Made by a program: the position numbers and the translations under genes. 29,561 bases of DNA from positions 1-29,561 of the forward strand of contig CANQZF010000001.1 of assembly GCA_947628265.1 (NCBI GenBank), in the 5' to 3' direction. This stretch comes from an uncultured Oscillospiraceae bacterium. GTDB taxonomy: Bacteria; Bacillota; Clostridia; Oscillospirales; Oscillospiraceae. Shown in pieces: positions 3,111 through 22,274 of this stretch. The notes below the pieces were generated by a model. It searched no databases. It was given only the letters and a program-made list of their open reading frames with translations, and was not told where the DNA came from. Position 1 is the first letter of the stretch; the number at the start of each line of letters is the position of its first letter.

Positions 3111-3146
3111 ACGCCACTACGCCGGAGGAATCCGGCGTAGTGGCGT
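3111..3146. terminator. Hairpin between the convergent MBL and SLH genes
   Basis: Perfect 16-bp inverted repeat ACGCCACTACGCCGGA-ggaa-TCCGGCGTAGTGGCGT, 7 nt from the SLH gene stop. Confidence 0.75.
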
Positions 3147-3152
3147 AATTTA

Positions 3153-6100
3153 TTACGATAACGATATAAGAAGATTATAAATTCTTTGGGTGAGGGCGGC
3201 AAATTCGCTGCGAGTGGTGTAGCGCAGGGGCGCCATGTACATATCGCCGATGCCCATGAAGATCTTCAGCTTGTAGAGGGCCTGGAAGGCGTTCAGCGAG
3301 TCCTCCGTCATCTCGTCAGCGTCGCCGAAAACATAGGGTTCAGCCGGAGCGCTCACGTCAACGCCCATGCTCTGGAGGAATTTGACGAGCATGATCGCCA
3401 TATCCGCGCGGGAGCTGGCCGCCTCCTCCGTGAACTCCCCGTCAGGCAAAAGCCCGGCCTGCTTGGCCCAGATCACGGCGGGGGTGTACCATCTGCCATC
3501 AGGAATGCCGGGATAGCTGACGCCCTCGTACCGGGTGAGGTCAACGCCCTGCATCCTGGCCAGGACCGCCGCGATTACCGCCTGGGAGACAGGGGTGTCC
3601 GGGTCGAACTGAGTATCCGAGATGCCCACCATCCATCTGTGCTCATAGGCCCATTTTACCTCCTCGTAGTCCCAATCCCCCACCAGGACATCGGTAAAGG
3701 GAAGGCCGCCGTTCCACTCCTCCTCGGGCTCCGAGGTCTCCGGCGTATGGGACGAGCCGGGGTTGGAGCTTCCGCCTGAACCGCCGGAGGTAATATTGAT
3801 GGTGAAGTTCTGGGCGGCTCGCTTCACGGGCTCCTTGGGCTCCTCATTGACGGTGGTGCCGTCGGTGCGGAACTCCGCGGCGATGGTGTGGGAATTGCCG
3901 TCGTTGACGCCTTCGATGGTCTCGTCAAATAACGTGATGATCGTGCTGCCGGACCTGGAGGAATAATCCTTCCCCTCTTCCAACCGTTTGCCGTCCAGGT
4001 AGAACGCTACGAACTGGCCATAGGTGCCTTCACTGGAGAAGGTCTGATCTCCCGCTTGAGTGAGCTCAAAATGGTATTCGCCGGATTTCGTGCCCACATA
4101 CTGTATGACATCATAATTGGCATCCGTTTTGTTCCAGACCGTCTCATCGGTGTTGTCATCTACGTTCAAAACGAATGGCTTGCTGTCAAGGACGACTTTC
4201 CCGCTCTGGGCGCTGTCGTAAACAAGGTTAACGGTAAAGCTGTACTCTCCGCTATTGCCCACCGGGACGCCGTAAAGGGCGCCTCCGGGCGAGAGCGTGA
4301 TGCCCGCCGGGAGTACGCTGTCACGGGCGAGCTCAAATCTGACCGGGGTCTTGCTGACGTTATTGGACTGGATCATGACGCCGTAGGGGACCCATTTTAC
4401 CGCGTGCTGGTCGGACAGGGTCTCCGTGACGATGCTGGGCGTACCGGCGACACCGGTGATCTTGACCTTTACTTCCTTTTCTCCGGCCTTGATGACAAGA
4501 ATGCCGTCAATCACGCCGTGATTGATCCTCCCGTCCGCGTCGTAGGTCGGGACGAGCCGGACCTTTCCGATATTGCCGAGGACTCCATAAGTAAGATTAT
4601 TTCCATCATGAACAGAGTCAAACGCACCAAGCTCCGCACCCTCTACCACGGTCCAATAGTCGTCGATAGCCACGTTCTGGGGGGTGCCCTCCCACGAAAC
4701 GGAAATACCCGTCAGCGTCGTGTTCCCGATGTTGGCGAACATGATGTCGTAATACGTCTCGCTGCGCTCAAGGTCCCCCAGATGGACTTCACGGCCAGGA
4801 ATGTTGAGCGTCTTGTCATAATTGTTGTCCTGCACATTTTCACCCAGAACGTAAAGCTCTGCTTCTGTCTTCTGGGCGATAAAGGTGACATAGTAGTTGG
4901 TCGTGTCTCCGTTTTCCGCTTGCACGGTTATGAGCTTGGGTACGCCCGGATCAAATTTGAGCGGGGATTCTCCACTTGTCCGCACCTCCGCCGCGCCATT
5001 TTCGTCAGCCCATGAGACCTTTGCGACACTTGCCGCACTCCAGGTGGGATAAATATATCCGCTTGAGTTGGCCTTTATATTATCCTCCGTTTCAAGGATG
5101 AAGACTGTCTGGTATATGTCTTTCATGGTGTCGGTCTGCTGATCGACATAGGAGGAGAAAATTTGATAATCAGTCCCACCTTCACGCTGTACTTTCGTTT
5201 TCACACCAGTAAGCTTGAAGGAGGTACTGCTTGAAGGTATCCGCTCGGACTCAACATACGGGGTCACCTGGATTTTGAAACGGGAAATCTCATCATTATT
5301 ATCAATGATCGTGAAGAAAATGCCCTCGCCAAATCCTGTGCTTTTATAGCCGTCGCCGAAAAGCTGATCTTTAATATCCGGTTGCCCAGCTGCTTTCTCC
5401 GCCGATTCATACAGTCCAACATAAGCGGCCTTTATATTACCCCTACCATTATTCACGTTGTTATTTTCCAGAAATTCGGGATCGCGCGCGGACATCGTGA
5501 GGGTAAACTCGTCGCTGGTTCGCATACCCTCTTCGAGCATATAAGTATATGAATCATATGGCATGTTGGAATTACTAACACGCTTACTATCTGACAACGA
5601 GAAGGAGGATATACTATCCTTTTTTAGACTAGCGCTTACAGAAATTCCTTCAGACCCCAAATAAACATAGAAACATTTGACACAGTCGTTTCCACGATTA
5701 TTCTTATAAAAAGCTGTAAAATACTTAGAGGACCAAGAATAATCAAACATGGCCGTATAAGTGTTGTCCGCTAACCGCTCTGAATCGATTCCCTCTTTGG
5801 TGGAATGCGTTCCCTCATATATTTCCAATTCAGAAAATCCATTTAGCGAAGTCTTGAAATCCATTTTCAGACTTATCTTTTTCCCTCTGCAGGAACGAGG
5901 GATGTAAATGCTATAGCGCTCAATATCTGTATTTGTCGTTTCGTCGAGGGTATCCATCCTTTCATATTTGCTGAGTATCTTGACTGCTTGGTTATTCTCT
6001 CCCTCAGTTACGCTGAAATCAATGATCATGTTTTCCTGGGGCAGAAGAGCCTTGACCACATATCTCTTGTTGCTTGCGTCAAGCTGATTATCCGCATTCT

Positions 6101-6608
6101 CTCCCACAATCAGCAACATATAGACACAGGCCGGATCGTTGGTGTAGAAACATTTTAAATCATAGTACTCGTCATACGATATTAAATTATTGTGATATAG
6201 ATTCTCAATCTCAGTGACGGAGTATCCCGCAGTCAGATCAATGTTTTCCCGGGCATCGGTCAGCTTATAATTGTCGCTCTCCGCATCAATATCGTACCTG
6301 TAGTAACGCTTGATCCACGCCACTTTGCTGTTCTCAGCATCGACCTGTTTGTCCTGCTTTTGAAGTTCGACCAGCTTGGCGTTCAGCCTTTCCAGAATGG
6401 TTTTCACGGGCACCTGGTCGAGCTTGTCCGGATCCTGGTCTGTGAGATCGATCTCGATTGGAGCATACCTGCTTCCAACTTCCTCCAGCGGCTGGAGAGA
6501 CATGGGGGCGATGCCTGTGTCACCGTCGTCCGCCAGGGCCGCGGGCAGTACGGAGGCCAGCATCAGCAGAGCCAGCAGTACAGCCACATGCTTTTTGAAT
6601 TTCTTCAT
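3153..6608 (-). CDS. Secreted SLH-domain surface protein with Ig/cadherin-like domains (1151 aa)
   Basis: Signal peptide MKKFKKHVAVLLALLMLASVLPAALA; beta-rich body with a cadherin-like ITVQAENGDTTNYYVTF segment and an Ig-like LPAGITLSPGGALYGVP segment; Gly/Ser/Pro linker; C-terminal SLH repeats (PFTDV, FDPDTPVSQA, SSRADMA, TTRSEFA). Confidence 0.9.
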   Translation of the reverse strand: MKKFKKHVAVLLALLMLASVLPAALADDGDTGIAPMSLQPLEEVGSRYAPIEIDLTDQDPDKLDQVPVKTILERLNAKLVELQKQDKQVDAENSKVAWIKRYYRYDIDAESDNYKLTDARENIDLTAGYSVTEIENLYHNNLISYDEYYDLKCFYTNDPACVYMLLIVGENADNQLDASNKRYVVKALLPQENMIIDFSVTEGENNQAVKILSKYERMDTLDETTNTDIERYSIYIPRSCRGKKISLKMDFKTSLNGFSELEIYEGTHSTKEGIDSERLADNTYTAMFDYSWSSKYFTAFYKNNRGNDCVKCFYVYLGSEGISVSASLKKDSISSFSLSDSKRVSNSNMPYDSYTYMLEEGMRTSDEFTLTMSARDPEFLENNNVNNGRGNIKAAYVGLYESAEKAAGQPDIKDQLFGDGYKSTGFGEGIFFTIIDNNDEISRFKIQVTPYVESERIPSSSTSFKLTGVKTKVQREGGTDYQIFSSYVDQQTDTMKDIYQTVFILETEDNIKANSSGYIYPTWSAASVAKVSWADENGAAEVRTSGESPLKFDPGVPKLITVQAENGDTTNYYVTFIAQKTEAELYVLGENVQDNNYDKTLNIPGREVHLGDLERSETYYDIMFANIGNTTLTGISVSWEGTPQNVAIDDYWTVVEGAELGAFDSVHDGNNLTYGVLGNIGKVRLVPTYDADGRINHGVIDGILVIKAGEKEVKVKITGVAGTPSIVTETLSDQHAVKWVPYGVMIQSNNVSKTPVRFELARDSVLPAGITLSPGGALYGVPVGNSGEYSFTVNLVYDSAQSGKVVLDSKPFVLNVDDNTDETVWNKTDANYDVIQYVGTKSGEYHFELTQAGDQTFSSEGTYGQFVAFYLDGKRLEEGKDYSSRSGSTIITLFDETIEGVNDGNSHTIAAEFRTDGTTVNEEPKEPVKRAAQNFTINITSGGSGGSSNPGSSHTPETSEPEEEWNGGLPFTDVLVGDWDYEEVKWAYEHRWMVGISDTQFDPDTPVSQAVIAAVLARMQGVDLTRYEGVSYPGIPDGRWYTPAVIWAKQAGLLPDGEFTEEAASSRADMAIMLVKFLQSMGVDVSAPAEPYVFGDADEMTEDSLNAFQALYKLKIFMGIGDMYMAPLRYTTRSEFAALTQRIYNLLISLS

Positions 6609-6609
6609 G

Positions 6610-9564: not shown

Positions 9565-9580
9565 GGGTCCTCACTCCGGG

Positions 9581-9724
9581 TCAATGGTGTTTTTCACCGA
9601 ATTCGCTGACGAGTCTGCGCTTGAGCCTTCGCCCGCTTACGCAAAAGGCAATGGCTACGGCGATGCCGCCCAGCACGCACACGCCCATGAGGACCGACCC
9701 CGCGATCACCAGTATCTCGCCCAC
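9581..9724 (-). CDS. Small single-pass membrane protein (47 aa, absent from the ORF track)
   Basis: Manual translation: MGEILVIAGSVLMGVCVLGGIAVAIAFCVSGRRLKRRLVSEFGEKHH*. GTG start behind GGAGGAG at the FHA gene end; it fills the gap between the FHA and kinase genes. Confidence 0.8.
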   Translation of the reverse strand: MGEILVIAGSVLMGVCVLGGIAVAIAFCVSGRRLKRRLVSEFGEKHH

Positions 9725-9726
9725 GG

Positions 9727-11025
9727 TCACTCCTCCCAAATGTAGTCGGCGCCGCCTGTCCCGAAGGAGACCCGGCAGCCGCTTGTCAGCTTGAAGGGGA
9801 TGTTCGGCGTGAGCCGCGCTCCCTCCACATACGTCCCGGCCTTGGAATTCAGGTCCACGATGGTATATTCCCCGTTCTGGCCCCGCTCGATGGCGGCGTG
9901 CCGGCGGCTCACCGCCACGGTCCTTTTATCAAACTCAAAGCTGTTCTGCTTGACGCCCAGCTCCGCGTCAAAGCGCCCGATGGTAAATACCCCCTTGGGT
10001 CCGATATTCACCTCGATGATCCGCGGAAGCGAGGAGTTGCCCACAAGACGGAGCCCTGTCGCGTAGACCTCCGTCTCGCCACCCTCAGTCTCCGGGGCGG
10101 CGACCGGCCCGGAATGGGCGGGAGGGGAGACAGGGGAATACAGGGGCTTTTCCCGCTGAGGTTGCGGATCGGACTTTTCGGCCGCCCCGCCTATGACCTC
10201 CCCACCATGATTGCCGTCTTTCTTCCTTTTGAAGATCGACTCCTTGGGGGCGCTTTCGGTCTTCTCCTTTTGGGCTTTCGGGTGCTTTGGGGCTTTTTGG
10301 CCCTTCTTGGCCTTCGCGGCCCAACTGCCGTCCAGGTTGATCTGTATATCTCTATCGCCCGGGGCGGGTCTCTCAAGGGGCCTCTCCTGCTTTGGCTCGG
10401 TTTTTTGCGCGGGAGGTTCAAACCTTGGCGCCTCCTGCCGAACAGGGGGAGGCGGAGAGGGAACGGGGCGCTTTTCCTCCTCCGGGGCGGCGGAGCCCTC
10501 CCGGAGCATCTCCAAGAGCCTCGCCGGACGGAAGCCCTGCATGATCTCCCGCAGGACCTTATTTTCCGTATTGAGATCGTCCACCGGGTTGCGCTCCGCT
10601 ATCTCGTGGGCCATATTTGAAAGCGCGTTTGCCCCCATAACGTCCCTGCGCGAGGGGACATATAAATAGCTTATCGTTCCCTCGTCGCGCCCGACAAAAA
10701 TGCATTCCACATCCAGCACGAACGAGGATTGCTTCAAAAACCAATCCTCGCAGTCCAAAATTGGCCGAAGAAGGCCGTTCCAGAGCTTGGAATATTCCGC
10801 CGTGGACCTGCGGCCAAAACGGTAGAGAAGCTTGGAGCGGTCACCCAGCTGATAGACGCACTCAATCTCGCCGTCGATGCTCCTGTGCCGGAAGGGCACG
10901 ATGAAGGGCGGGCAATCCGCCTCGATGGTATAGAGCGCCTTTTTGTCCAGGTCCTCCTCCGGGAAGCGTATGACAAGGCAGGCCCCGGCGGAAAGATCGT
11001 TTCGGCTTTGTATCTCATAAATCAT
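9727..11025 (-). CDS. DUF6382-like N-terminal domain, Pro/Lys-rich linker and C-terminal FHA domain (432 aa)
   Basis: FHA motifs FTIGR, VSRRHA, IVDLNSKAGTYV at the C-terminus. The N-terminal about 165 aa resemble DUF6382 as recalled from Clostridial Tad loci (HMM confirmation needed). Confidence 0.85.
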   Translation of the reverse strand: MIYEIQSRNDLSAGACLVIRFPEEDLDKKALYTIEADCPPFIVPFRHRSIDGEIECVYQLGDRSKLLYRFGRRSTAEYSKLWNGLLRPILDCEDWFLKQSSFVLDVECIFVGRDEGTISYLYVPSRRDVMGANALSNMAHEIAERNPVDDLNTENKVLREIMQGFRPARLLEMLREGSAAPEEEKRPVPSPPPPVRQEAPRFEPPAQKTEPKQERPLERPAPGDRDIQINLDGSWAAKAKKGQKAPKHPKAQKEKTESAPKESIFKRKKDGNHGGEVIGGAAEKSDPQPQREKPLYSPVSPPAHSGPVAAPETEGGETEVYATGLRLVGNSSLPRIIEVNIGPKGVFTIGRFDAELGVKQNSFEFDKRTVAVSRRHAAIERGQNGEYTIVDLNSKAGTYVEGARLTPNIPFKLTSGCRVSFGTGGADYIWEE

Positions 11026-11030
11026 ATGAC

Positions 11031-12338
11031 TTACTCCTCCTCGTACTCAAGAAGTGTGATGAACTGCCAGCCGGCATCGGTTTTTACGGCTGCGCTGCCG
11101 TTTGAAAAGCTCCGTGCCTCAAGGAATACGGGCTCGATGACCACTTTGCCCCGCAGGCTCACGTATCCCCAAAGACCGTCCCTTTTGACGGCCGCCAGGT
11201 GCTGCCCGAAGGAGAGGGCATCCTCGAATTGATAATCGATCATGACCTCGCCGTTCGTATCGATAAAGCCCCATTTTCCGTCTTTCTTTACAGCCGCCCA
11301 GCCGTCGGCAAAGGGCCGGGCATCCTCATAGGGGCCGCCGGTTTGAGCGCCTCCCGACAGGAGTACGACAGTTCCGTCGTCCTGCCGGAAAAACACCGAG
11401 TTTTGGCAAAAGCACCGGCCAAGCTCGTCCATGACCACTCCGCTCCAGCCGGGCTCCACAAGCCAGCTGACGCCATCTGTGGCGATGAGGCCCCACTTGC
11501 TCCCTGACTTGGCGGCTGCGTAGCCGTTGGAGAACATGCCCAGCTCCTCAAAGCGGTGATCGGACACGCCGAACGCGCAGTTGGCCAGTACCACGGCTCC
11601 GTCCATGTAGAGCCCGAACCGGTCTTGCGCGGCGTTGGTAAAGCCGCCGGCCTCCCGGCGCAGCAGGGCGATCCGCTCGTTCCCGGAGTTCACGGCAGAG
11701 ATCGTGTCTCCCTTTTTCACGATGAAGCGGTCACCGCTCCAGGTGCTGACGCTGTCGTATTCGCAGGGGAGAATGAGCGTGCCGGTGGAGGTGGCGGCGC
11801 CCCAAAGACCGCCGCGCATTACCTGAATGGCCCCGGCGTAGACAGCCGTCACATCCTCGTAGACGTTCCCCACCGTGAGGTAGTCGTACCGTGTGTCCTC
11901 ATACCGCTCGTCCAGCTCCGCGCTGCCGGTGGCGCTGTAGCCGTCCCGGAGCACCCGCAGGGCCTCGGCGTACTCGTCTTGGGCAAAATAGAAGTCCGCC
12001 GCTTCCTGAAAGATTTCAGGGCCCGCCGTGTCCTCAGACATCTGCTTTATAAGCAGAGCCTCGTACTTATCCTCGTAGTCGTATTTGGAAAGGTCCTGCT
12101 TGTAGATCCCCTTCAGCCGCTCCTGGGCGTAGGAGGTGTATTCGCCGTTATAGCCCGCAGCCTCCTCGAGAAGTGGGACAGAGTAGACGTAGATATCATC
12201 GGCGAGATACCTCTCGGCCTCGTTTATAAGCTCGATCTGTTTCTCTGTATCGGTTTTTCCCGACAGGGCGACGACCCAAGAGATACCCAGGAACACCACG
12301 CACACGATAATAAGGAGAATTCGGTTCCCTTTTTTCAT
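11031..12338 (-). CDS. Membrane-anchored WG-repeat (KWG-type) protein with TPR-like helical region (435 aa)
   Basis: N-terminal TM ILLIIVCVVFLGISWVVAL; repeats FSNGYAAAKSGSKWGLI, FADGWAAVKKDGKWGFIDTNGEVMI, FGQHLAAVKRDGLWGYV. Start set at ATG 12338 (GGGGG RBS). Confidence 0.9.
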   Translation of the reverse strand: MKKGNRILLIIVCVVFLGISWVVALSGKTDTEKQIELINEAERYLADDIYVYSVPLLEEAAGYNGEYTSYAQERLKGIYKQDLSKYDYEDKYEALLIKQMSEDTAGPEIFQEAADFYFAQDEYAEALRVLRDGYSATGSAELDERYEDTRYDYLTVGNVYEDVTAVYAGAIQVMRGGLWGAATSTGTLILPCEYDSVSTWSGDRFIVKKGDTISAVNSGNERIALLRREAGGFTNAAQDRFGLYMDGAVVLANCAFGVSDHRFEELGMFSNGYAAAKSGSKWGLIATDGVSWLVEPGWSGVVMDELGRCFCQNSVFFRQDDGTVVLLSGGAQTGGPYEDARPFADGWAAVKKDGKWGFIDTNGEVMIDYQFEDALSFGQHLAAVKRDGLWGYVSLRGKVVIEPVFLEARSFSNGSAAVKTDAGWQFITLLEYEEE

Positions 12339-12352
12339 TTTTGACTTACCCC

Positions 12353-12904
12353 CTATTGAAAAAAGACCGTCAGGAGCATTCCCGCAAATAGGAACGGCAC
12401 GAGCGCAAAAGAATCCTTGCGCCCCATTTTCCGGCATAAAATCAAGACCCCCGCTGTCAGCGCCGCCAGCACCGAGCCGTACAGCATGGTCGGCATCACG
12501 CCGTTAAACCCCAGATACAGCCCTGAGACCGCCATCAGCTTCACATCGCCTCCGCCCAGGCCCCCACGGGAGATGAGGTAGACCAGCAGGAATACCACCC
12601 CACTGACGGCAAAGCCCACAAGGCCGCTGATGAGAAGGAGCAACCCCTCCTGGGTCCTCACAAAGAGCTGCGGGACCATAACGCACAGCCACAAAAGGAG
12701 CATGACGCCCACAAGCGAATTGGGGACCCGCTTTTCCCGGATATCCGTGACAGACGCTAAGTAGACGAAGACGAGAAGGACCGCGCGCAAAAGGAGGACC
12801 GTCGCGTCTGTTTCCCCGTGCTTGACGATCCAAAAAACCGCGAGGATGACCGGGAGCCCCGCGTAGGGCAGGAGCTTTTTCAGATTTTTCTTCTTATCCG
12901 CCAT
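12353..12904 (-). CDS. Prepilin peptidase, A24 family (TadV/CpaA-like)
   Basis: Hydrophobic 183-aa protein with aspartate motifs TDIREKRVPN and GGGDVKL; no methyltransferase/Zn domain. Confidence 0.92.
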   Translation of the reverse strand: MADKKKNLKKLLPYAGLPVILAVFWIVKHGETDATVLLLRAVLLVFVYLASVTDIREKRVPNSLVGVMLLLWLCVMVPQLFVRTQEGLLLLISGLVGFAVSGVVFLLVYLISRGGLGGGDVKLMAVSGLYLGFNGVMPTMLYGSVLAALTAGVLILCRKMGRKDSFALVPFLFAGMLLTVFFQ

Positions 12905-13676
12905 AGCCCTCGCCTTCCCCCTGGAGCCACGCCAGGGTCTCGGCCTGCTGGGTGACCACCAGATCCGGGAAGGGCAGGGGCAGCGCTCCGAAGGTATAAT
13001 CGATCTTATATTCTACGATGATCCGGACGCTCTTTTCCGAGGTGAGAAAATGGCTGTCGTGGTTTCCGCGGCTTGCCCAGTCAAGATAGACGGTGGGCGT
13101 AAAGTCGAGGCCCTCTACGCTCTCAATGACTCCGTACGTCCGCAGATACTCGTCTCCGTCCAGGGTCCCGTTGGAGAGATACCGGTCCATCAGCACCTGG
13201 AGGAGCTGCTCAAAGCCGTGGCTGGCAATCTGTTCGAGGGTGAGGGACAGGAAATTTTGAAAGGTCTCCTTCGGGTCTGTCTTCAGGAGCTTCTTACCCT
13301 CGTCGTAGAGCCCCTTTCCCGATTGGCCGATCTTCTTCCCGGACTCGTAAACACCCTCAAAATCCTTGGCTTTCATGAGAGTGTCCAATTCCTTTATAAG
13401 AACGCCTACGTTCTCTTTAACGGAGTCGATCTCCTTCTGGGCCTTCCCTGCGTTCTCTTCTATGCCCATGAGCGGGTCGGCAAAGCCGATCTTGTCCAGG
13501 GCGTAGCAGTACATGGAGACTGTTTCAGCCGTCTGCGTCAGCGCGTAGTGCATCCGGGCCTGGACCGTCACGATATTGATGAGCGAGAGGATCGACACCA
13601 TCAGAAAGACAAGGAGCGTGAAGCTCAGTACAGTCTCCACCACGATATACCCATTCTCATCCCTTTTCACGGTCAA
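12894..13676 (-). CDS. TadE-family pseudopilin (260 aa; start may be GTG at 13670)
   Basis: Class III signal ENG|YIVVE followed by a hydrophobic helix and ARMHYALTQTAE; overlaps both neighbours. Confidence 0.85.
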   Translation of the reverse strand: MTVKRDENGYIVVETVLSFTLLVFLMVSILSLINIVTVQARMHYALTQTAETVSMYCYALDKIGFADPLMGIEENAGKAQKEIDSVKENVGVLIKELDTLMKAKDFEGVYESGKKIGQSGKGLYDEGKKLLKTDPKETFQNFLSLTLEQIASHGFEQLLQVLMDRYLSNGTLDGDEYLRTYGVIESVEGLDFTPTVYLDWASRGNHDSHFLTSEKSVRIIVEYKIDYTFGALPLPFPDLVVTQQAETLAWLQGEGEGYGG

Positions 13677-16198
13677 TACCCCCTGTACCCTTCGGCTGAA
13701 ATCGCAAGCGTCTTTGGCGGTATGAGGCCGTCCAGCCCCTTTTGTGCAAAGGGCATGGAGAGAAACAGCATATCCATATCGGCGCTCACCGTCAAAACAA
13801 AGCCGGTCTTGGCGGAGGAAAGCTCAAAAAGCTCGGTCTTCTCCATGAGGCTCTCCCGCTCTTCTCGGCTCCTGTCCTTATCGGACCCGATCTTGTTGAC
13901 CTTGTTGGTCATGTTGACCTGGATGAGGCTCTTAACGCGTTCAGCCATTTCATCCCCATCGACAAAAAGCAAAAAGACGCGCAGATAGTCAAAATAGGTG
14001 AGCCCGTTTTTGTCGTCCAAGCCGTCGTCCGACCCCCCGGAGCTCTCAGAGCCCTCCGCGCCTCCTGAGTCTCCTTGGCCCCCTGTGAGGCCCTCCAGGG
14101 TGCTCTTCAACGCGTCTTTTGAGGCGTCCAGCAGGCTGCTGAGCTGAAGCTTCCAGGTGTCGTCCGTTTTTAGAAAGGCCACCTTGTGCCCCTGCCGAAG
14201 AAGGCTCAGGTCCACAAGGGCCTCGCCTGCGGCCATACCGAGCCTGGCCAGCTCTCCCACCGCTATGGCGATGGGCCCCAGCCCCGCAAGGGCAGATTTA
14301 ATGGAGCCTACCACTGTCTTTACGGACTCTATTGTAAAGGACGCGATATAGTCCATGACGAGACGGAGAATCACGATCAAAAGTCCCACGGCGTTGTGGT
14401 TGCTTTTGGCGTCGCTCTTACCGTGATAGACGTACTCCAGCTCCGACTGAAACATGAAGTTAACGTCGATGCTCATGGGGATGCCGGCCATGTTCTTTTC
14501 CCCACTCTTGGTGGTGTAGCAGGAGAACATCTCGGTGGTGTATGTAAGCAAAAGGATCTTGTTCGCCACGGAGTCCATAAGGGTCCCGAGACTGGCAAAA
14601 TCGCTGAGAAGCTTGCTCCACCCGCTCTCCCCTGAGGGTTCGTCTTCGCTGCCATTGACAAGTTTGGAGCAGTGCCAGGCGCCCTCCGGTTTTGGGTCGA
14701 GGCCGGCGTACAGGTCCTTGACCGTGTCAAAGAGCCTCTCTACGGACTTTGTGGCGCTTGCCTTGGTCGCGCTCTTCTCACCGCTGTAGAGCTCCTTCAG
14801 AATATCCAGGAACTTCTTGTTGTTCTCGGAAAACTCAGGCCACGCCTTATATTCGCTGTACGGCTTTATCTCCTCAGGCGAGTCGGCTGAACCGTTCCCC
14901 AGGTCCCACAGCACGTCAGGCCGGGGAGACGCCCCCGACGAGACCAGATGCGCGTTGGTGGCAGTGATGTCGATATCCATACCGTCTATGGCGCTTATAA
15001 GGCCATCCACCGTATAAGAGCCCAGACACTCCTCGCTCCCGATATTCCTGAGCCTGATCACGAAAGCACTGATATGGGGCTCATCAACGTTATACATCTC
15101 CTGGGCCATTTCCCCGAGATCGTATTCCACCAGGTCCTCATATTTATCCAGAAGACCGTCTGGACCCACCAGGCTTGCCTTCAGCGTGTCGTCGCAGTCG
15201 CTGGAATTCACCTTTGTCCGAAGCGCTTGGATCTTTTCCTTGAGGCCTTTTTTCGCTTTATCCGCCTTGTCGCACTGATCCTTCAGGTCGGTCAGGTTAG
15301 GGATGTATTTATTAAGCTTGTCGGCGTCGTCTTTCGCGTCCTTCTTAAGATCGGAAAGGAGGTCCTGGCACGCTTCCTTAAGCTCCTCATAGTTATCCTC
15401 GTGCTCTTCGACCTCCGCCTCGGCCGCCTCTTTTTCTTCATCCGTCTCCGCGTTGGCCAGATCGTCCAGGGCGTTTTCATAGGCGTCTCTCTCGCGAAGC
15501 ATTTCGCGCAGCTTGGAACTGACGCTGCTGAGGGCATCATTGATCTTTCGGACGGCGGCATTTTCCTCTACCTTGTACCCCGGAGCACCCTCGGAGGAGA
15601 CGCCCACCTCTTCGCCGCCGTCCAGTTTCTTCAGAAGGTCAAAGATTTTTTTGTAATATTTATCCAGCTTATCGAGCTCTTTTTCTATGTCCGTCTTGGC
15701 ATCGATAATCTCGGCGTCCGCGGTCACCTTTTTGAAGAGATCCAAGCGATCTAAGAGCTCATTGGCGAGTACGATGGGGGCGCGGATCTTGGAATATTCC
15801 TCTATTTGACGGCGGAGCTGGTTGATATCGTCTAAATTCTGCGCCTCGTCCGATTTTAGCTCCGCCTTCACATCCTTGCCGTAGAACAGCCGCAGGAGGT
15901 TATTCCCCGTGACGCTGGAGTCCTTGGCGAAGATGGTCTTTTCCACGTATTTGTTTACAAGCTCCTGGAGCTTTTCGTCCTCCATGGTGACGCCGAAAAG
16001 CCCGTACAGGTCCTGAAGGAGGGCGTTGTAGTCGGCCAGCACGGAGTTGAGCGCCAACTGGTCCGCGTCCTGAAGCACGGCGCGGGAGGTATAGATCCTT
16101 GCGAGGTCCACGCCTGTCCCGGTGATCAGGATCGCCGGGATCAGCAGGAGCGTGACCAGGACCGTCACCGCCCCCCGATTGCCTAACCCTCTTTTCAT
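13673..16198 (-). CDS. Large TadG-like pseudopilin with coiled coil and DUF5702-like C-terminus (841 aa)
   Basis: NRG|AVTVLVTLLLIP...VDLARI TadG-type N-terminus; long heptad-rich region; ELEYVYHGKSD and YFDYLRVFL motifs recalled as DUF5702. Confidence 0.82.
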   Translation of the reverse strand: MKRGLGNRGAVTVLVTLLLIPAILITGTGVDLARIYTSRAVLQDADQLALNSVLADYNALLQDLYGLFGVTMEDEKLQELVNKYVEKTIFAKDSSVTGNNLLRLFYGKDVKAELKSDEAQNLDDINQLRRQIEEYSKIRAPIVLANELLDRLDLFKKVTADAEIIDAKTDIEKELDKLDKYYKKIFDLLKKLDGGEEVGVSSEGAPGYKVEENAAVRKINDALSSVSSKLREMLRERDAYENALDDLANAETDEEKEAAEAEVEEHEDNYEELKEACQDLLSDLKKDAKDDADKLNKYIPNLTDLKDQCDKADKAKKGLKEKIQALRTKVNSSDCDDTLKASLVGPDGLLDKYEDLVEYDLGEMAQEMYNVDEPHISAFVIRLRNIGSEECLGSYTVDGLISAIDGMDIDITATNAHLVSSGASPRPDVLWDLGNGSADSPEEIKPYSEYKAWPEFSENNKKFLDILKELYSGEKSATKASATKSVERLFDTVKDLYAGLDPKPEGAWHCSKLVNGSEDEPSGESGWSKLLSDFASLGTLMDSVANKILLLTYTTEMFSCYTTKSGEKNMAGIPMSIDVNFMFQSELEYVYHGKSDAKSNHNAVGLLIVILRLVMDYIASFTIESVKTVVGSIKSALAGLGPIAIAVGELARLGMAAGEALVDLSLLRQGHKVAFLKTDDTWKLQLSSLLDASKDALKSTLEGLTGGQGDSGGAEGSESSGGSDDGLDDKNGLTYFDYLRVFLLFVDGDEMAERVKSLIQVNMTNKVNKIGSDKDRSREERESLMEKTELFELSSAKTGFVLTVSADMDMLFLSMPFAQKGLDGLIPPKTLAISAEGYRGY

Positions 16199-16210
16199 GC
16201 CGCTTCTCCC

Positions 16211-16870
16211 TCACTTCACGCCCAGAAACTTCCAGACCTTATTAAACGCGTCGGAGAGCTTATCTAACCCTAAGCCGTATTTTGTGTTGAGATACTCCAC
16301 AAAATCCGACGCGATATCCATAGTTCTTACAAACTCGTCGCCGTTTTGGACGATGGCGGTGGAGCTCACCGTGATGGGGATCTCCTTCGGGAAGCCCACC
16401 AGGGACAGATCCACCGGGGAGACCACGGTGCGCGTGGCGGTGACGGTGACTTCCTTATATATAATGTAGTTTTGAAGCCGCACATCCACCTCCAGATCCC
16501 CGCTTTTGGCGACGATGCTGTCTCCCTCGATCTTCGTGACGGTCTCTTTGGCCCCGGACTTGTCCACCTTTCCGGACAGCACCGAGAAAAACGCCACGTA
16601 CACGTTGGGAAGGGCCTTTTTGTCCCTCTCCCACTCATACTTCACCTGCTTGTCGTCAAACTTGAGCCAGGTGTCGGACTGCTCCACGGTGAGAGCGGTG
16701 GCGGCGTACTGCGTGGCCTCCTGGAGCACCGCCCGCTCCGGGAGGTAAACGGACAAAAGAGCCAGTCCCGTGAAGACCAGGAGGACGATGGGGAAGAGAA
16801 TGGTCGCCTCGACCACGGCGTAGGCCCTTGTATTCATCATAAAGCGCTTTAGACGTTGTCTCACGGCCAT
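16211..16870 (-). CDS. TadE-family pseudopilin (219 aa)
   Basis: TRA|YAVVEATILFPIV N-terminus and LQEATQYAA helix. Start moved to ATG 16870 behind a GGGAGG RBS. Confidence 0.87.
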   Translation of the reverse strand: MAVRQRLKRFMMNTRAYAVVEATILFPIVLLVFTGLALLSVYLPERAVLQEATQYAATALTVEQSDTWLKFDDKQVKYEWERDKKALPNVYVAFFSVLSGKVDKSGAKETVTKIEGDSIVAKSGDLEVDVRLQNYIIYKEVTVTATRTVVSPVDLSLVGFPKEIPITVSSTAIVQNGDEFVRTMDIASDFVEYLNTKYGLGLDKLSDAFNKVWKFLGVK

Positions 16871-16904
16871 TCTCCCTCCCTTTTTGAATGTTCGCGGAGT
16901 GATA

Positions 16905-17195
16905 TTATACTGGACCATCTCCGCCCGCAGGCGGATTCTGATTCCAGCTCCCTGGTTCCGACAGATCGCCCTTTTTAATGATTTTGTCCCATACACCCTT
17001 CAACCAACCGCTGAGGGCTTCCCAGAACACCGCGATAAGCAGCACCGCGATGAGGATGAGCAGTACCGCCACAACGATCCCGGAGAGGCCGCGCTCATCG
17101 CTGAAGAAGGACTTGATCTTTGCCTTGCAGGCGTTGACGGCCGCAACTCCTTTAAAATAGAGGGCGATGCTGGCGTTATTGATCGCTTCAAACAT
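16905..17195 (-). CDS. Flp-type major pilin (96 aa)
   Basis: Leader ending FFSDERG, hydrophobic LSGIVVAVLLILIAVLLIAVFW, strong AAGGAGG RBS, canonical position after tadC. Confidence 0.85.
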   Translation of the reverse strand: MFEAINNASIALYFKGVAAVNACKAKIKSFFSDERGLSGIVVAVLLILIAVLLIAVFWEALSGWLKGVWDKIIKKGDLSEPGSWNQNPPAGGDGPV

Positions 17196-17250
17196 CAGCG
17201 TGATCCTCCTTTCCTAAAAAATTATGCAGACCGGTCACCCGGAGAAGCAT

Positions 17251-18309
17251 TTACATGAGCGAGGTAAAATTGACCACCACCGGCGCCATGATCATGATGA
17301 GGATCGCGATGAACAGCAGCATAGTGGGGATCATGAGCTTGGTATTGGCCGCCTCGGAGGCCTTTTTGGCTGTGTGGCGGCGCTCCTGCCACGCCTCATG
17401 GGCCATGTCCTTGAGCAGCCGTCCGATCTCCGCGTTGCCCTTTGTGAGGTTCTGGATAATGGCGGAGGCGAGCTTCGTTGTCTCCTTGGTGTTACACCTG
17501 TCGATAAAGTTGGAATACGCCTCCACCGGCTCCACAAGGTTATTGAGCTCATCGGCTGTCTTGCGCATCTCCATATAGAGCTCATCGCTCCGGCTGAGGC
17601 TCGTCTCGGCCCAGGCCTTGTCCATGATCATCCCGGAGGTGACCAGCAGGGCCAGCTTGGATACCACGTTGGGGAACTGGCGGGCGATGGCCGCCCGGCG
17701 CTTTTTCAGCTTGTCGTCCACCTCGTCAAAAAGGGCGTAGACGAACACGGCCACCAGGGCCGTCCCGATCCCCAAAACAGCCAGCCCCTGGGTGGAGCCG
17801 CTGGCGGTCATGACCGCGGCGCCCAGGGCGAAGACTGCGGGAATGGCCAGCAAGGGGTAGGAGATGAGCTTTGCAAGCAGGGCCTCGGCCCGTTTGTCCG
17901 CGTACTTTTTCCCGTAGAGCTCCGCGTTTTTCTCATAGAGGCCCTTGTGCAGGGACTCCAGCTTCAGTTTGGGGTAGAGCCGCTGCGCCGCGTATCCCGG
18001 GAGGACCAGCAGCGAGACGCCCCGCATATTGCCCTGCTGGATGGCGGCGTTTTGCGCCTGGAGCTTGGCGATCTTCTTTTCGGAGTCGGAGGCCAGGAAA
18101 AGGCCCATGACCTTGCGCTCCAAGCCGCGGCAGGCCTCCAAACGCTGGGCGTTTGTCGCATCCTTGGCGCGGAGCTTGTCGATTTGCAGCATATTTTCAA
18201 GAATCTTTCCGAATGCCGCCGAGACCCACTCCTGGCGTCCAGCCACGCACAGCAGGACGATCCACGCGGCGAGGGCCGCCGTGGCAAAAACGAGCAAAAT
18301 CAGCTTCAC
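17251..18309 (-). CDS. tadC: TadC-like T2SSF-family platform protein
   Basis: ARQFPNVVSKLALLVTSGM, TKLASAIIQNLTKGN and ASEAANTKLMIPTMLL motifs; position after tadB. Confidence 0.9.
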   Translation of the reverse strand: MKLILLVFATAALAAWIVLLCVAGRQEWVSAAFGKILENMLQIDKLRAKDATNAQRLEACRGLERKVMGLFLASDSEKKIAKLQAQNAAIQQGNMRGVSLLVLPGYAAQRLYPKLKLESLHKGLYEKNAELYGKKYADKRAEALLAKLISYPLLAIPAVFALGAAVMTASGSTQGLAVLGIGTALVAVFVYALFDEVDDKLKKRRAAIARQFPNVVSKLALLVTSGMIMDKAWAETSLSRSDELYMEMRKTADELNNLVEPVEAYSNFIDRCNTKETTKLASAIIQNLTKGNAEIGRLLKDMAHEAWQERRHTAKKASEAANTKLMIPTMLLFIAILIMIMAPVVVNFTSLM

Positions 18310-18322
18310 GCCGCCACCTCCG

Positions 18323-19117
18323 TCAAATCTTTACGTTACTGAATATCTTCGTCAGGACGAAGCTGATGATGAACACGATAAGGCCCCCGGTAGCCACGGC
18401 CCTGCCCATGGGAGTCGTATATATGGCGTCCATAAAGCCCGCGCCGGCGGTGCCAATCACCGCTAGGATCACCAGCGGCATGAAGAGCATGATGTTTGCC
18501 TCGGATTTGGCGGCGGTCATCATGGCGTCGATCTCCATCTCAATCTCCATCTTGTCGGCGATGATCTGCTGCGTCTCACGGACGATCTCGTTAGCGCGGC
18601 TGGATTTGCCCTCGATGGTGGCGTAGATGGAGGCGAAGCTGTCAATGTCCTCCAGTCCGCTCCTGTCGGCCATGTCCTGAAAGGCGGCGGACAGCGGGAT
18701 GGCGTTGTTGAATTTTCGGATGATAATGTCCAGCTCCACCATGATGTCCGTCTCCGGGGAGTAGATCATCCCAAGGTCGTTTTTGGCGCTCATGAGCGCC
18801 GTCAAAACGGGATTGCCCGCGCGCATGGCCACAGACAGCGCCTCCAGAAGGTCGAAAAACTGGACCCGGAGCTTCAAAAGCCGCTTTTTGATGGCGCTTT
18901 TGGACGAGGCGTAGATATTGGCCGCTCCCACCACCAGGCCCCCCAGAGCGGAAATGACCGGGATCCTGTAGAAGATGTACAGGACCACGGCTCCCGCAGC
19001 GAAGCCCACCAAAAACGCCAAGATATGCTCCACCGGGCCGTTTGGGGTCTTGGAATAATCCGGTACCGGCTGTCTGTTGCTCACCGCGGGAGCTTGTTCT
19101 TCGACGGCCTTTTTCAT
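18323..19117 (-). CDS. tadB: TadB-like T2SSF-family platform protein
   Basis: QFFDLLEALSVAMRAGN, AFQDMADRSGLEDIDSFA and AAKSEANIM motifs; position after tadA. Confidence 0.9.
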   Translation of the reverse strand: MKKAVEEQAPAVSNRQPVPDYSKTPNGPVEHILAFLVGFAAGAVVLYIFYRIPVISALGGLVVGAANIYASSKSAIKKRLLKLRVQFFDLLEALSVAMRAGNPVLTALMSAKNDLGMIYSPETDIMVELDIIIRKFNNAIPLSAAFQDMADRSGLEDIDSFASIYATIEGKSSRANEIVRETQQIIADKMEIEMEIDAMMTAAKSEANIMLFMPLVILAVIGTAGAGFMDAIYTTPMGRAVATGGLIVFIISFVLTKIFSNVKI

Positions 19118-19129
19118 CTCTCCGCCTCC

Positions 19130-20410
19130 TTATATCTTGGTGTAAATACCGGCGCTCTCCAGCTTATAGGTGTTGCGCATGGGGTTTTCCGTTCTTCTGA
19201 GCTGCCCCTTTACTGTGGCCTTCGTGCTGTCCTCTGACTCCACGAACTCATAGAGCGGATTGAGCTCATAGGTTCTGGTCGCCGGGTCATATCCGATGAC
19301 CTCCACGATTTCCATGGTCTTCCTGCTCTTATCCCGCAGTCTTGAAAGGTGGATGATGATATCCACCGCCGAGGCGATCTGCTGGCGGATCGCCTCCAGG
19401 GGCAGCCCCTCCGCGCCCTGGAGGACCATGGTCTCAAGACGGCTCATCATGTCCCGGGTGGAGTTGGCGTGGCCGGTGGAGAGGGAGCCGTCGTGGCCGG
19501 TGTTCATGGCCTGGAGCATATCCAGCGCCTCGGCGCCGCGTACCTCGCCCACTACGATCCTGTCCGGTCTCATACGAAGGGCCGAGCGGATCAGGGCTCT
19601 TATGGGGATGGCGCCGCTGCCATCGGGGCCGGCGTTTCGCGTCTCAAGCCGCACCAGGTTGTCCACATTGCGGATCTGGAGCTCCGCGGAGTCCTCGATG
19701 GTTATCACACGCTCATCCCTGGGGATGAAGTTGGAAAGGGCGTTTAAAAATGTGGTTTTACCGCTGCCGGTGCCGCCGCTTATAAAGATGTTGTATCGCG
19801 CGGTCACAAGTAAGCGCAGCACCTCGGCGACCTCCGGAGTGATGGACCCGTAGGCGATGAGCTTTTCCACCGTCATGGCTTCCTTGGGGAACCGCCGGAT
19901 GGTCACGATAGGACCGTTGAGCGCGATGGGAGGCATGACCACATTGACACGGGAGCCGTCCTCCAGGTGCGTGTCCACAATGGGCTCGCTTTCGTTGACG
20001 ACTCTTCCGGCCTGAGAGACGAACTTGGTGATGATGGTCTCCAGCTCTTGGCGGCTCTCAAAATGGTTCTCCGTCTTGCTAAGCTTTCCGGCCCGCTCAA
20101 TGAAAATATCCTTATAGCCGTTTATCATGACCTCGGTTATGTCGGGGTCGTTGATGATCTGCCCCAATATGCCAAGGCCGCGAATGGCCTCGAACACGGC
20201 CTCCAGGATATATCTGCGCTCGCGAAAATTGATGGATGCCACCTGACGGCCAAGCTCCGGATTCTCCGTAGCTGCCCGCTCCACGGTCCTGTCAAGGACC
20301 GCCTCAATCAAACACTTCAGCTCATCGTCGTCCAATACCGTGAGGTCCGGGTTTTGGTGTATCTCCGTCTTTATCCTGCCGATGAGCAGATCGCGGTTTT
20401 TTTCTGTCAT
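19130..20410 (-). CDS. tadA: TadA/CpaF pilus assembly ATPase
   Basis: Walker A GGTGSGKTT, TIEDSAEL Asp box, ALRMRPDRIVVGEVRG Walker B, MNTGHDGSLSTGHAN His box. Confidence 0.96.
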   Translation of the reverse strand: MTEKNRDLLIGRIKTEIHQNPDLTVLDDDELKCLIEAVLDRTVERAATENPELGRQVASINFRERRYILEAVFEAIRGLGILGQIINDPDITEVMINGYKDIFIERAGKLSKTENHFESRQELETIITKFVSQAGRVVNESEPIVDTHLEDGSRVNVVMPPIALNGPIVTIRRFPKEAMTVEKLIAYGSITPEVAEVLRLLVTARYNIFISGGTGSGKTTFLNALSNFIPRDERVITIEDSAELQIRNVDNLVRLETRNAGPDGSGAIPIRALIRSALRMRPDRIVVGEVRGAEALDMLQAMNTGHDGSLSTGHANSTRDMMSRLETMVLQGAEGLPLEAIRQQIASAVDIIIHLSRLRDKSRKTMEIVEVIGYDPATRTYELNPLYEFVESEDSTKATVKGQLRRTENPMRNTYKLESAGIYTKI

Positions 20411-20435
20411 ACTATGTACACCCGCCCTTCAGAGC

Positions 20436-21428: not shown

Positions 21429-21438
21429 TTTGAAAACC

Positions 21439-22116
21439 TCAACTTTCACAAATAACTATGGCTAAAGAAATATTGTCCCTCTCTCCGTGGTCAATCGCGC
21501 TTTGCGCTAATCGCTGAATTGTCTTTTTGCATATTTTGTGATTTACATTTTCCAGCGCTGTTTTCAGGATGTCCTCGCCCGTCCTCTTATAGAGCCCGTC
21601 AGAGCAAAGCAGAAACCGCCTGTTGGTACAGCGCCCCTCATTATAATAAATCGTCGGTTTTTTTCCGCCGCCCAGGCAGGAGGTGAGCCTCCCGTTATTG
21701 ACCTGGTCATAGGTCAGCTGCCGGATCTCCCCGTTTTCCAGGCTGTAGATGCGGCTGTCTCCGGCATGGACGATATAATAGTTCTCTCCGTCCAGAAGAA
21801 GAACTGACGCGGTGGTTCCGGTCCGCAGACACATATTGTCCGCGCTGATGGAAATATCATGATCGATCTCTACCAGCTTGTCCCTGAGGCGCAGCCCGAT
21901 CCTGGTGACGTCTGTTATCGAATCGAACCAGCTTCCGAGCATCCGAACGACGCCGACAGACGCAAACGCACCGTCCGCTCTGCTTCCGATCCCATCACAT
22001 ATTACGGCAAGACAGACGGCTCTATCTGACAGGACCTTCTCCTTTATCAGGATGCTGTCCATATTTGTCTCACGCCCGTTCTGTATGCTCAGACCATCAA
22101 AAAAGAAGGAATTCAT
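21439..22116 (-). CDS. PP2C/PPM-family Ser/Thr protein phosphatase (225 aa)
   Basis: GRETNMD, ICDGIG, HAGDSRIY, LLCSDGL and DNISL motifs; AAGGAG RBS before ATG 22116. Confidence 0.93.
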   Translation of the reverse strand: MNSFFFDGLSIQNGRETNMDSILIKEKVLSDRAVCLAVICDGIGSRADGAFASVGVVRMLGSWFDSITDVTRIGLRLRDKLVEIDHDISISADNMCLRTGTTASVLLLDGENYYIVHAGDSRIYSLENGEIRQLTYDQVNNGRLTSCLGGGKKPTIYYNEGRCTNRRFLLCSDGLYKRTGEDILKTALENVNHKICKKTIQRLAQSAIDHGERDNISLAIVICES

Positions 22117-22142
22117 CGCTTCGCTCCTTTCGCGCGGCATAC

Positions 22143-22151
22143 ATTATATCA
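22143..22151 (-). promoter_or_regulatory. Proximal extended -10 element (P2) of the Tad operon
   Basis: TGATATAAT on the minus strand about 27 nt before the PP2C start; no good -35. Confidence 0.55.
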
Positions 22152-22194
22152 GGCACAAACAGACTGTGGTGACATAGGTACACTTTTTGCACCA

Positions 22195-22208
22195 TAATTC
22201 GCGAATTA
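22195..22208. promoter_or_regulatory. Perfect 14-bp palindrome TAATTCGCGAATTA, candidate operator
   Basis: Self-complementary sequence lying between the two promoter elements. Confidence 0.5.
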
Positions 22209-22245
22209 GAAATATACGTAGATTTGGCGAAATGTTACATATTTT

Positions 22246-22274
22246 ATTATATCAGCATTACTTTCTAAATGCAA
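22246..22274 (-). promoter_or_regulatory. Near-consensus sigma-A promoter (P1) of the Tad operon
   Basis: TTGCAT (22269-22274), 17 nt, TATAAT (22246-22251), with extended -10 TG. Confidence 0.75.

Follow-up and report, generated by a model that had tools for sequence, protein, structure and literature searches.

The window analysed here (29,561 nt) is one entire contig, CANQZF010000001.1, of a 1.75-Mb metagenome-assembled genome of an uncultured Oscillospiraceae bacterium that is 74% complete. It carries an operon of 15 genes, all on the minus strand and running from 22116 to 3153, in which a Tad pilus machine is encoded together with a Ser/Thr kinase, a PP2C phosphatase and a protein, here called J, that joins a DUF6382 domain to an FHA domain. 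The gene order is PP2C, TadZ, TadA, TadB, TadC, pilin, TadE-like, TadG-like/DUF5702, minor pilin, A24 peptidase, WG-repeat protein, DUF6382-FHA, one-transmembrane (one-TM) protein, kinase and SLH protein. With refined start sites, neighbouring genes overlap or are separated by at most 55 nt, in agreement with the tight co-directional packing described in the original prediction. Relatives are found in Oscillospiraceae and neighbouring groups. An overview of the features is given in Table 1.

Table 1 Features of the Tad operon and of its flanks in the window
Feature	Position	Strand	Evidence
Hairpin, probable terminator	3111..3146	.	16-17-bp stem, -36.1 kcal/mol, z -6.2
Secreted surface protein, 1151 aa, C-terminal SLH repeats	3153..6608	-	SLH 2.9e-10; signal-peptide-like N-terminus
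Receptor Hanks-type Ser/Thr kinase, TsxD-like, 984 aa	6610..9564	-	Pkinase 8.6e-36; weak PQQ_2 match
One-TM microprotein, TsxK-like, 47-52 aa	9581..9739	-	Hydrophobic helix, then tail GRRLKRRL..EFGEK
DUF6382 (pseudokinase)-linker-FHA protein (J), TsxJ-like, soluble	9727..11025	-	PF19909 and PF00498
Membrane-anchored WG-repeat protein	11031..12338	-	PF14903 (WG_beta_rep) 7.8e-44, five repeats; one N-terminal TM
Prepilin peptidase, TadV type, 183 aa, without methyltransferase domain	12353..12904	-	Peptidase_A24 5e-17
Minor pilin-like protein, 260 aa, prepilin-type N-terminus	12894..13676	-	N-terminal ComGE match; N-terminal TM; kept in 36 loci
TadG-like protein, 841 aa: Tad N-terminal domain, long helical region, DUF5702	13673..16198	-	PF13400 3e-4, PF18960 3.8e-28
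TadE-like pseudopilin	16211..16867	-	Weak PF07811 0.005; position kept in 32 loci
Flp1-like prepilin, 96 aa	16905..17195	-	Flp1_like PF16982 1.6e-7; good ribosome-binding site
TadC platform protein	17251..18309	-	T2SSF (PF00482) 4e-8
TadB platform protein	18323..19117	-	T2SSF (PF00482) 4.7e-7; three hydrophobic segments
TadA/CpaF secretion ATPase	19130..20410	-	T2SSE 1e-57; best NCBIfam model is the TadA family
TadZ/CpaE-type protein: N-terminal atypical receiver and ParA/MinD-like domain, P-loop	20436..21428	-	PF21194 7e-6, just below cut-off
PP2C/PPM Ser/Thr phosphatase, TsxF-like, first gene of the operon	21439..22116	-	PF13672/PF00481; NCBIfam Stp1/IreP 5.6e-28
Second extended -10, TGaTATAAT	22143..22151	-	Read from sequence; outside the repeat-flanked segment
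Candidate invertible promoter	22179..22298	-	16-nt inverted repeats 22283-22298 and 22179-22194, 88 bp enclosed
Small serine recombinase, resolvase/invertase type, catalytic domain and C-terminal helix-turn-helix (HTH)	22265..22903	-	Pfam Resolvase 1.3e-29

Judged by homology and position, the operon is a full gene set for the assembly of a monoderm Tad/Flp (type IVc) pilus. TadZ is homologous to TadZ of E. rectale (PDB 3FKQ, 5.7e-19), with a KYQ motif within the alignment, and TadA is the sole T2SSE ATPase detected in the assembly. TadB and TadC are encoded by two adjacent, separate genes with one T2SSF domain each. The prepilin scores 31.1 bits against PF16982, for which the cut-off is 33.5 bits. 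Its long leader ends in DERG, directly followed by LSGIVVAVLL, and its mature part is about 60 aa long; the pilin in the equivalent position of another Clostridia locus (L123) passes Flp1_like at 1.2e-17. A 63-aa frame at 17000-17191 was rejected as the pilin, and the 96-aa frame at 16905-17195, which matches Flp1_like, was retained. The start of the TadE-like gene, at about 16867, is corrected from the plain list of open reading frames (ORFs). The TadE, Tad and DUF5702 matches are weak, yet the positions of these genes are conserved across loci. The canonical Tad systems of Aggregatibacter (tad) and Caulobacter (cpa) share TadZ/A/B/C, TadE/G-like pseudopilins and a TadV-type peptidase with the operon, whose pilin is a putative Flp-type one. 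The window differs from them in its lack of a secretin, RcpC and TadD, which is normal in monoderms, in its additional WG-repeat, SLH and signalling genes, and in a pilin without the usual Glu5 and Flp motif.

The signalling genes are found at both ends of the Tad genes. PP2C most likely starts at 22116, with an AGGAG ribosome-binding site ahead, and shows the usual metal-binding motifs. The kinase is composed of a kinase domain (1-310), a TM segment (316-334), a charged helical stalk and a propeller-like ectodomain with the weak PQQ-like match. In an alignment of at least 25 orthologs, the G-loop, Lys38, the helix-C Glu, the catalytic Asp/Asn, the Mg-binding Asp and SPE are conserved. The catalytic loop reads HSD, and HGD, HRD or HAD in orthologs; the Mg-binding motif is always DFN. 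The same alignment contains a variable Ser/Thr-rich insert with a single conserved threonine in the context [ED]T[VQ]. In the FHA domain of J the phosphothreonine-contacting residues R351, S373 and H376 are invariant. The linker that precedes it is disordered and unconserved save for T318, a candidate phosphosite a few residues N-terminal of the FHA domain that is conserved without exception in 35 of 35 sequences. A lone conserved linker threonine before an FHA domain is reminiscent of FHA proteins that regulate themselves, for example GarA and OdhI. A small ORF with the tail RL..L..E[FY]G is located between the FHA and kinase genes in 17 further loci of the window's type (type 1; the count leaves out L019). 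From these motifs, the kinase, PP2C and FHA reader look functional. The PP2C and kinase of the operon are extra copies, since other genomes hold a separate housekeeping PP2C-kinase pair.

J has several hundred full-length homologs, and a profile of its N-terminal domain yields 892 clusters at 50% identity, 159 of them with E <= 1e-30. Among loci fetched around J homologs, 36 from Oscillospirales share the order TadZ-TadA-TadB-TadC-(pilin)-TadE-DUF5702-minor pilin-A24-WG-FHA-(microprotein)-kinase-SLH. Carriers include Flintibacter faecis, Anaeromassilibacillus senegalensis and Flavonifractor sp. An100, and the loci come from human, mouse, rabbit and termite guts. Because the arrangement recurs gene for gene in these 36 other loci, it is far beyond chance. 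A PP2C ortholog is found directly upstream of TadZ in 10 further genomes. A branch from termite guts (L021, L022, L024, L025, L027-L030 and L035, all Oscillospiraceae) retains WG and J beside the Tad genes, along with a short kinase that consists of the catalytic domain only (about 285-385 aa). It has no microprotein, kinase ectodomain or SLH protein and, where checked, no PP2C before TadZ. One locus is rearranged (L020:8272-11383), with PP2C and TadZ between the WG and DUF6382-FHA genes, and TadZ there adjoins its predicted partner (see below).

The distribution of DUF6382 was surveyed at two taxonomic levels. In a family sample of 401 genomes it is found in 28 genomes, representing 19 of 134 genera, and in none of six genomes of the window's genus. 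Twenty of these places were fetched: eight are of the window's type, seven belong to a second, divergent Tad operon type (type 2), three to type VII secretion systems (T7SS), and two are unresolved. In type 2, the genes for J, PP2C and kinase stand together after the WG gene at the end of the Tad genes. Across the class, 22 of 400 Clostridia genomes carry DUF6382. Of 20 places fetched here, 15 show TadZ/A/B/C or further Tad genes at a distance of at most 10 kb, one is of the window's type and four are unresolved; EssC or WXG100 is present at none of the 20. The smallest arrangement is exemplified by L123, where TadZ-like, TadA, TadB, TadC, Flp1-like pilin and DUF6382-FHA genes follow each other and no large surface protein is detected. 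In the samples examined, DUF6382-FHA is mainly linked to Tad genes, far more often than to T7SS genes. In a tree of DUF6382 the window's type forms one clade (100/100), and two T7SS sequences are placed beside the second Tad type (95/89), within a half dominated by Tad-linked sequences; the root of the tree is not fixed and T7SS is represented by these two rows only. The expectation that the signalling genes co-occur with Tad genes in other genomes is strongly confirmed by this neighbourhood survey, with 36 loci, two operon types and the class-wide sample.

The AlphaFold2 model of J is confident at residues 1-178 and 321-432, with the disordered linker between. For residues 1-180, an exhaustive aligner (VIA) finds the N-terminal domain of TraF from pIP501 (8cba, Z 10.8), the PAN3 pseudokinase (4bwp, Z 10.7), S. 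aureus EssB (4ann, Z 10.5, root-mean-square deviation 3.8 over 151 residues) and many true kinases (Z about 10.3). The kinase-like fold is visible only by this aligner: Foldseek with the full J model returns FHA matches only, and a sequence search of the DUF6382 domain against the PDB gives no match, EssB included. The invariant columns of DUF6382 contain no Gly-loop, catalytic Lys, HRD or DFG, and the domain is therefore classed as a pseudokinase. On the modelled structure, DUF6382 is an EssB-like pseudokinase fold, newly recognised here, and the pseudokinase reading of this domain in the original prediction is upheld by the matches to EssB, PAN3 and true kinases. EssB/YukC of T7SSb and the TraF domain likewise belong to Gram-positive envelope machines and show a compact, kinase-like fold (about 180 aa) that lacks catalytic motifs. 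J differs from EssB, a membrane protein, in being soluble, without a TM segment, fused to FHA and without sequence similarity.

In T7SSf, TsfJ is paired with an ATPase that carries a TadZ-like receiver domain (PMC11217815). Because of this pairing, and because J is always found alongside TadZ, TadZ and J(1-178) were selected for complex prediction. The pair reaches an ipSAE of 0.79 in three of three runs, and the best of three controls 0.00; the mark of 0.79 is reached by 51 of 78 solved complexes and by 2 of 108 mismatched pairs. On the TadZ side, the predicted interface is formed by helix 1 of the receiver domain (about residues 1-110) and by NKYQRIG, of which KYQ (K93/Y94/Q95) is conserved class-wide and present in 3FKQ. 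On the J side it comprises residues 27-37 (D27, T33, D37) and 93-96, including the invariant C-x-D-W-F motif (D94/W95/F96); the motifs used on either side are conserved in their families. The DUF6382 domain is thus predicted to dock on the receiver-like domain of TadZ, which has been proposed earlier as a docking domain (bioRxiv 10.64898/2026.07.08.737194). In a T7SS locus of the same family (L100), no TadZ-like receiver protein is present to partner the J protein, only TPR proteins.

The four signalling proteins have published counterparts. The accessory parts of T7SSe/j comprise TsxD (kinase), TsxF (PPM phosphatase), TsxJ (DUF6382-FHA), TsxK (one-TM protein) and TsxI, a large Ig-like envelope protein (Garrett, Higginson and Palmer 2024, PMC11217815); this is also the one paper found in which the DUF6382 domain is named, there as a T7SS component. 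All four signalling parts (TsxD, F, J and K) are encoded together in the operon, with matching architectures. The T7SSe/j-type locus L100 (L100:1321-19900) encodes, by Pfam, FHA-EssC, two WXG100 proteins, a Big_2 protein, DUF6382-FHA, PP2C, six tandem TPR proteins and a TPR kinase, and its J, PP2C and kinase are detectably homologous to those of the window. The window differs in that its machine is Tad, in a propeller-like kinase ectodomain as opposed to a helical or TPR one, and in an SLH-anchored instead of a TM-anchored surface protein, which has no detected sequence homology to the Ig-like protein of L100. The reading of the operon itself as a T7SS was rejected because EssC and WXG100 are absent: neither the window nor 39 related loci nor the genome, which is 74% complete, yielded an EssC/TsxC ATPase, WXG100 or YukD-like protein. 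The single FtsK-like gene of this genome is located on another contig, and no WXG100 match above cut-off is found in it. Separately, a weak WXG100-like N-terminus (24 bits, below cut-off) is present on another contig (G000:C24:6188-6433), at the start of a 1245-aa frame that is possibly an LXG-type polymorphic toxin.

In type VI secretion systems (T6SS), the kinase PpkA, the PP2C phosphatase PppA and Fha1/TagH of Pseudomonas aeruginosa, and TssL-Fha of Agrobacterium, form a post-translational firing switch (summarised in PMC11217815). There, as in the window, a membrane Hanks kinase, a PP2C and an FHA scaffold are encoded within the operon of an envelope machine. The machine is another one, the proteins are non-orthologous and the FHA protein of the window has a pseudokinase domain. 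No T6SS core domains (TssA-M, Hcp, VgrG) are found among the window proteins, and the likeness is one of working principle only. The comparison drawn at the outset with PpkA/PppA/Fha1 and with EssB/EssC of T7SS is apt. Class III CpaF/TadA ATPases with an N-terminal FHA domain are known, mostly from betaproteobacteria (PMC12019362). In these, too, a phosphothreonine reader is attached to the Tad motor; it is fused to the ATPase, whereas here a separate pseudokinase-FHA protein is predicted to act via TadZ. The two arrangements suggest that phospho-control of Tad pili arose more than once. No experimental description of a kinase, FHA protein or PP2C in Tad loci was found in the papers searched, and open surveys that cover Gram-positive type IV pili and the type IV filament superfamily mention no kinases or FHA proteins in Tad loci. 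Tad genes beside T7SSg/h have been noted and the adjacency left unexplained (PMC11217815). The locus had been presented as an undescribed system; this holds for the cassette inside Tad operons, which is so far described only in T7SS, and not for the kinase/PPM/DUF6382-FHA/small-TM set, which is published for T7SSe/j (PMC11217815).

Two further genes of the operon encode envelope proteins. The WG-repeat protein likely starts at Met34 of a long frame that opens at 12437, and its gene is conserved in type-1 and type-2 loci. The SLH protein is found in 17 type-1 loci with 26-58% identity, as against 48-71% for the neighbouring kinase. The GC content is 0.43 at 5001-6000 of the window, in the N-terminal half of the SLH gene, and 0.55-0.63 around it. 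Low GC and divergent orthologs suggest a fast-changing or exchanged outer domain. A feature search of the N-terminal region gives weak leads only, to He_PIG/Ig-like wall-anchored proteins (score 0.82), and the protein may carry Ig-like domains. By analogy, it may stand in for TsxI. It was previously called an SLH adhesin. The protein is secreted and SLH-anchored, and it is absent from the termite-gut branch; an adhesin function is putative.

Upstream of the operon, the serine recombinase gene ends 150 bp ahead of the PP2C start. The nearest solved relatives of its product are Sin/Bin3, gamma-delta resolvase and Gin invertase, and a weak full-length match to the Mpi master-invertase model is found. 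Orthologs are present in the equivalent position in L078 (74% identity) and L081 (55%). The segment enclosed by the inverted repeats contains a promoter directed toward the operon (ON), with TTGCAT (22274-22269) and TATAAT (22251-22246) at a spacing of 17 and an extended TG (TGaTATAAT, 22254-22246). Related repeat pairs with the core AAAGT[GA]TAC, 88-125 bp apart, are found at the same place in L078, L079, L081, L136 and L137, and a different 26-nt pair at the equivalent place in L132; in total, repeats are present in 7 of the 10 loci with examinable upstream DNA. L081 (Anaeromassilibacillus senegalensis mt9) and L079 (Oscillospiraceae bacterium 50-16) are cultured carriers of such repeats. 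A uniform promoter scan detects one strong site per related segment, usually with extended TG. This site points toward the operon in the window and in L081 and away from it in L078, L079, L136 and L137. The -35 and -10 elements of the window can be aligned with those of L078 only if one of the two segments is read as its reverse complement, and the flanks are collinear. When the middle segments are compared between genomes by alignment score alone, the signal is weak; the promoter scan is clearer. Taken together, these sequence comparisons suggest that the repeat-flanked promoter is a phase-variation switch of the operon.

Invertible promoters driven by small serine recombinases are represented by Salmonella Hin/hix and Bacteroides fragilis Mpi. 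As in these invertons, a small serine recombinase is located beside a short, repeat-bounded promoter segment upstream of a surface-structure operon, and both orientations occur, here among related genomes. The segment is only 88-125 bp long in the present loci and the recombinase is not always adjacent.

Combining these observations, we consider it reasonably likely that the locus is a Tad pilus operon with a phospho-switch running from the kinase through the FHA/pseudokinase protein to TadZ, plus an invertible promoter; switching of the pilus probably takes place on two levels, DNA and protein. In the proposed mechanism, the receptor kinase would sense an envelope or external cue through its propeller-like ectodomain and phosphorylate itself, probably at the [ED]T[VQ] threonine of the insert, and/or T318 of the J linker. 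The FHA domain of J would read the resulting phosphothreonine. The DUF6382 pseudokinase would sit on the atypical receiver domain of TadZ, a contact supported by structure prediction, and TadZ would recruit and position TadA. Phosphorylation would hence license or localise the TadA-driven assembly of the Flp1-like pilin on TadB/TadC, and PP2C would reset the switch. Envelope-side partners may be the one-TM microprotein and the WG-repeat and SLH-anchored proteins. In addition, the promoter on the short invertible segment beside the serine recombinase is probably a heritable on/off switch for the entire operon (phase variation). Of the phosphorylation-gated machine originally predicted, the co-occurrence, the pseudokinase and the T6SS/T7SS comparison stand and the SLH adhesin is putative; its contact-sensing role is purely an inference from the kinase ectodomain.

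Several observations speak against a phosphorylation-gated machine. The kinase bears DFN and HSD in place of DFG and HRD, and the FHA domain of J has an Ala (S-x-A-G-T) where most FHA domains carry a peptide-contacting Asn (S-x-N-G-T). The contact between TadZ and J comes from a type of prediction with false positives, in which neighbouring genes pass in 7 of 44 cases, above random pairs, and the J interface residues show no clear difference in T7SS-linked J proteins, in a very divergent alignment. The operon is known from DNA alone, as low-depth contigs (3-4x) of a single rabbit-gut sample, from which all four public runs with the window sequence derive. In several class-wide Tad loci, J is found right after TadC, or after the pilin gene in L123, with no kinase or PP2C match within 10 kb, so J may be a structural part whose function is independent of phosphorylation. 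On this basis J could be a constitutive scaffold comparable to EssB in T7SSb, with phosphorylation dispensable or a lineage-specific addition and the kinase and PP2C modulating something else, for example the surface protein. The FHA domains of EssC indeed bind the EssB pseudokinase without phosphorylation in T7SSb (PMC11217815), and the predicted J-TadZ contact requires no phosphate. Such a scaffold is nevertheless unlikely, given that the FHA Arg, Ser and His as well as T318 are invariant, that kinase, PP2C and J occur together in two divergent operon types and in T7SS loci, and that kinases encoded elsewhere could serve the loci without their own. It is more improbable still that kinase, PP2C, J, microprotein and large surface protein together make up an autonomous display or sensing unit that travels with secretion machines and controls the export or anchoring of the SLH protein and not pilus assembly. 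T7SS loci do carry the same cassette beside a large Ig-like protein, and only 1 nt separates the SLH gene from the kinase gene, with which it is translationally coupled. However, the termite-gut branch keeps J and the short kinase with the Tad genes in the absence of SLH protein and kinase ectodomain, minimal loci consist of TadZABC, pilin and J with no large surface protein detected, and the predicted partner of J is TadZ, a component of the Tad motor.

The invertible promoter meets objections of its own. Both orientations were not seen within one population: the two contigs that cross the switch are oriented as in the window, and no strand-change joints are found in these 3-4x contigs. The recombinase is adjacent in three of the seven repeat-bearing loci (window, L078, L081) and not in the other four. 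In five more genomes its homologs, which are multi-copy, are located on other contigs, with non-adjacency certain in the two of five whose upstream DNA is long enough. A second extended -10 lies outside the segment, and a serine invertase would have a very short segment to act on, at 88-125 bp. The individual repeat arms are near-palindromic, which allows them to be read as paired operator sites, bound by a looping transcription factor, with the neighbouring recombinase belonging to a mobile element. This is a real possibility, if somewhat short of an even one. A genome-wide search found no copy of the repeat core beyond the window's own site, so no regulon is seen. Against operator sites speak the promoter, which faces the operon in two genomes and the opposite way in four with collinear flanks, and the -35 and extended -10 of window and L078, which align only after reverse-complementing one segment; the order recombinase-repeats-PP2C is also kept in three genomes of different genera. 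One flank of the operon carries tRNA-Thr and tRNA-Tyr followed by a tyrosine integrase (together at 1-1583) and a metallo-beta-lactamase-fold gene. The other has the serine recombinase and, beyond it, genes for an AEP (TOTE-type) primase-helicase, an HTH protein and a trypsin-like protease. These mobile-element-type flanks and the absence of DUF6382 from the six same-genus genomes fit an operon on a horizontally acquired island. The Tad-like machine could then serve DNA transfer or uptake for this island (conjugation or competence) and not adhesion; the best NCBIfam model for TadA, below cut-off, is named a 'conjugal transfer-associated' TadA family, and integrase matches flank related loci downstream of SLH (L023) and upstream of PP2C (L135, L136). 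This role is very improbable. No relaxase, coupling protein, ComEA or ComEC is found among the domain matches of the window, the operon recurs in many chromosomal settings that lack the primase-helicase, and horizontal movement is usual for Tad loci, which are known to spread as colonisation islands (PMC6668835).

The hairpin downstream of the operon is located between its end and the convergent metallo-beta-lactamase-fold gene; its T-rich tail is present on the plus strand only, and the operon strand has no U-tract. An Rfam scan for a riboswitch or other RNA leader returned the two tRNAs only, and an att repeat of the tRNA end, sought within the contig, was not found. The AEP (TOTE-type) primase (965 aa, 23191-26088, PF22548 1.2e-93) is fused to a ResIII/DEAD helicase and stands alone; it is either a conflict-system protein or the replication protein of the island. 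A 115-aa ORF at 26862-27209 has no significant Pfam match (DUF7881_N 0.017) and is followed by the trypsin-like protease gene at 27223-28065.

New in the present analysis are the Oscillospiraceae SLH/WG variant, the family- and class-wide counts, the DUF6382 fold, the predicted docking on TadZ and the comparative evidence for promoter inversion. A broader proposal is made tentatively and is, in our view, rather doubtful: DUF6382-FHA may primarily be a Tad component that makes the TadZ receiver domain an input port for threonine phosphorylation, T7SSe/j may have borrowed the cassette from Tad, and Oscillospiraceae may stack a DNA-inversion switch on it, combining heritable with acute control.

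Tad pili are major colonisation factors, and their assembly and regulation in Gram-positive gut anaerobes, like the partners of the TadZ receiver domain, are almost unstudied. The operon family described here is widespread in Oscillospiraceae, with looser forms across Clostridia, and it offers a testable chain from the kinase via the FHA/pseudokinase adaptor and TadZ to the TadA motor, for which Flintibacter faecis BX5 and Anaeromassilibacillus senegalensis mt9 are cultured carriers. Through its portable phospho-switch cassette, which both have in common, it also connects Tad pili with type VII secretion. If the invertible promoter holds true, these commensals would vary piliation between cells, with a bearing on gut colonisation and immune recognition.

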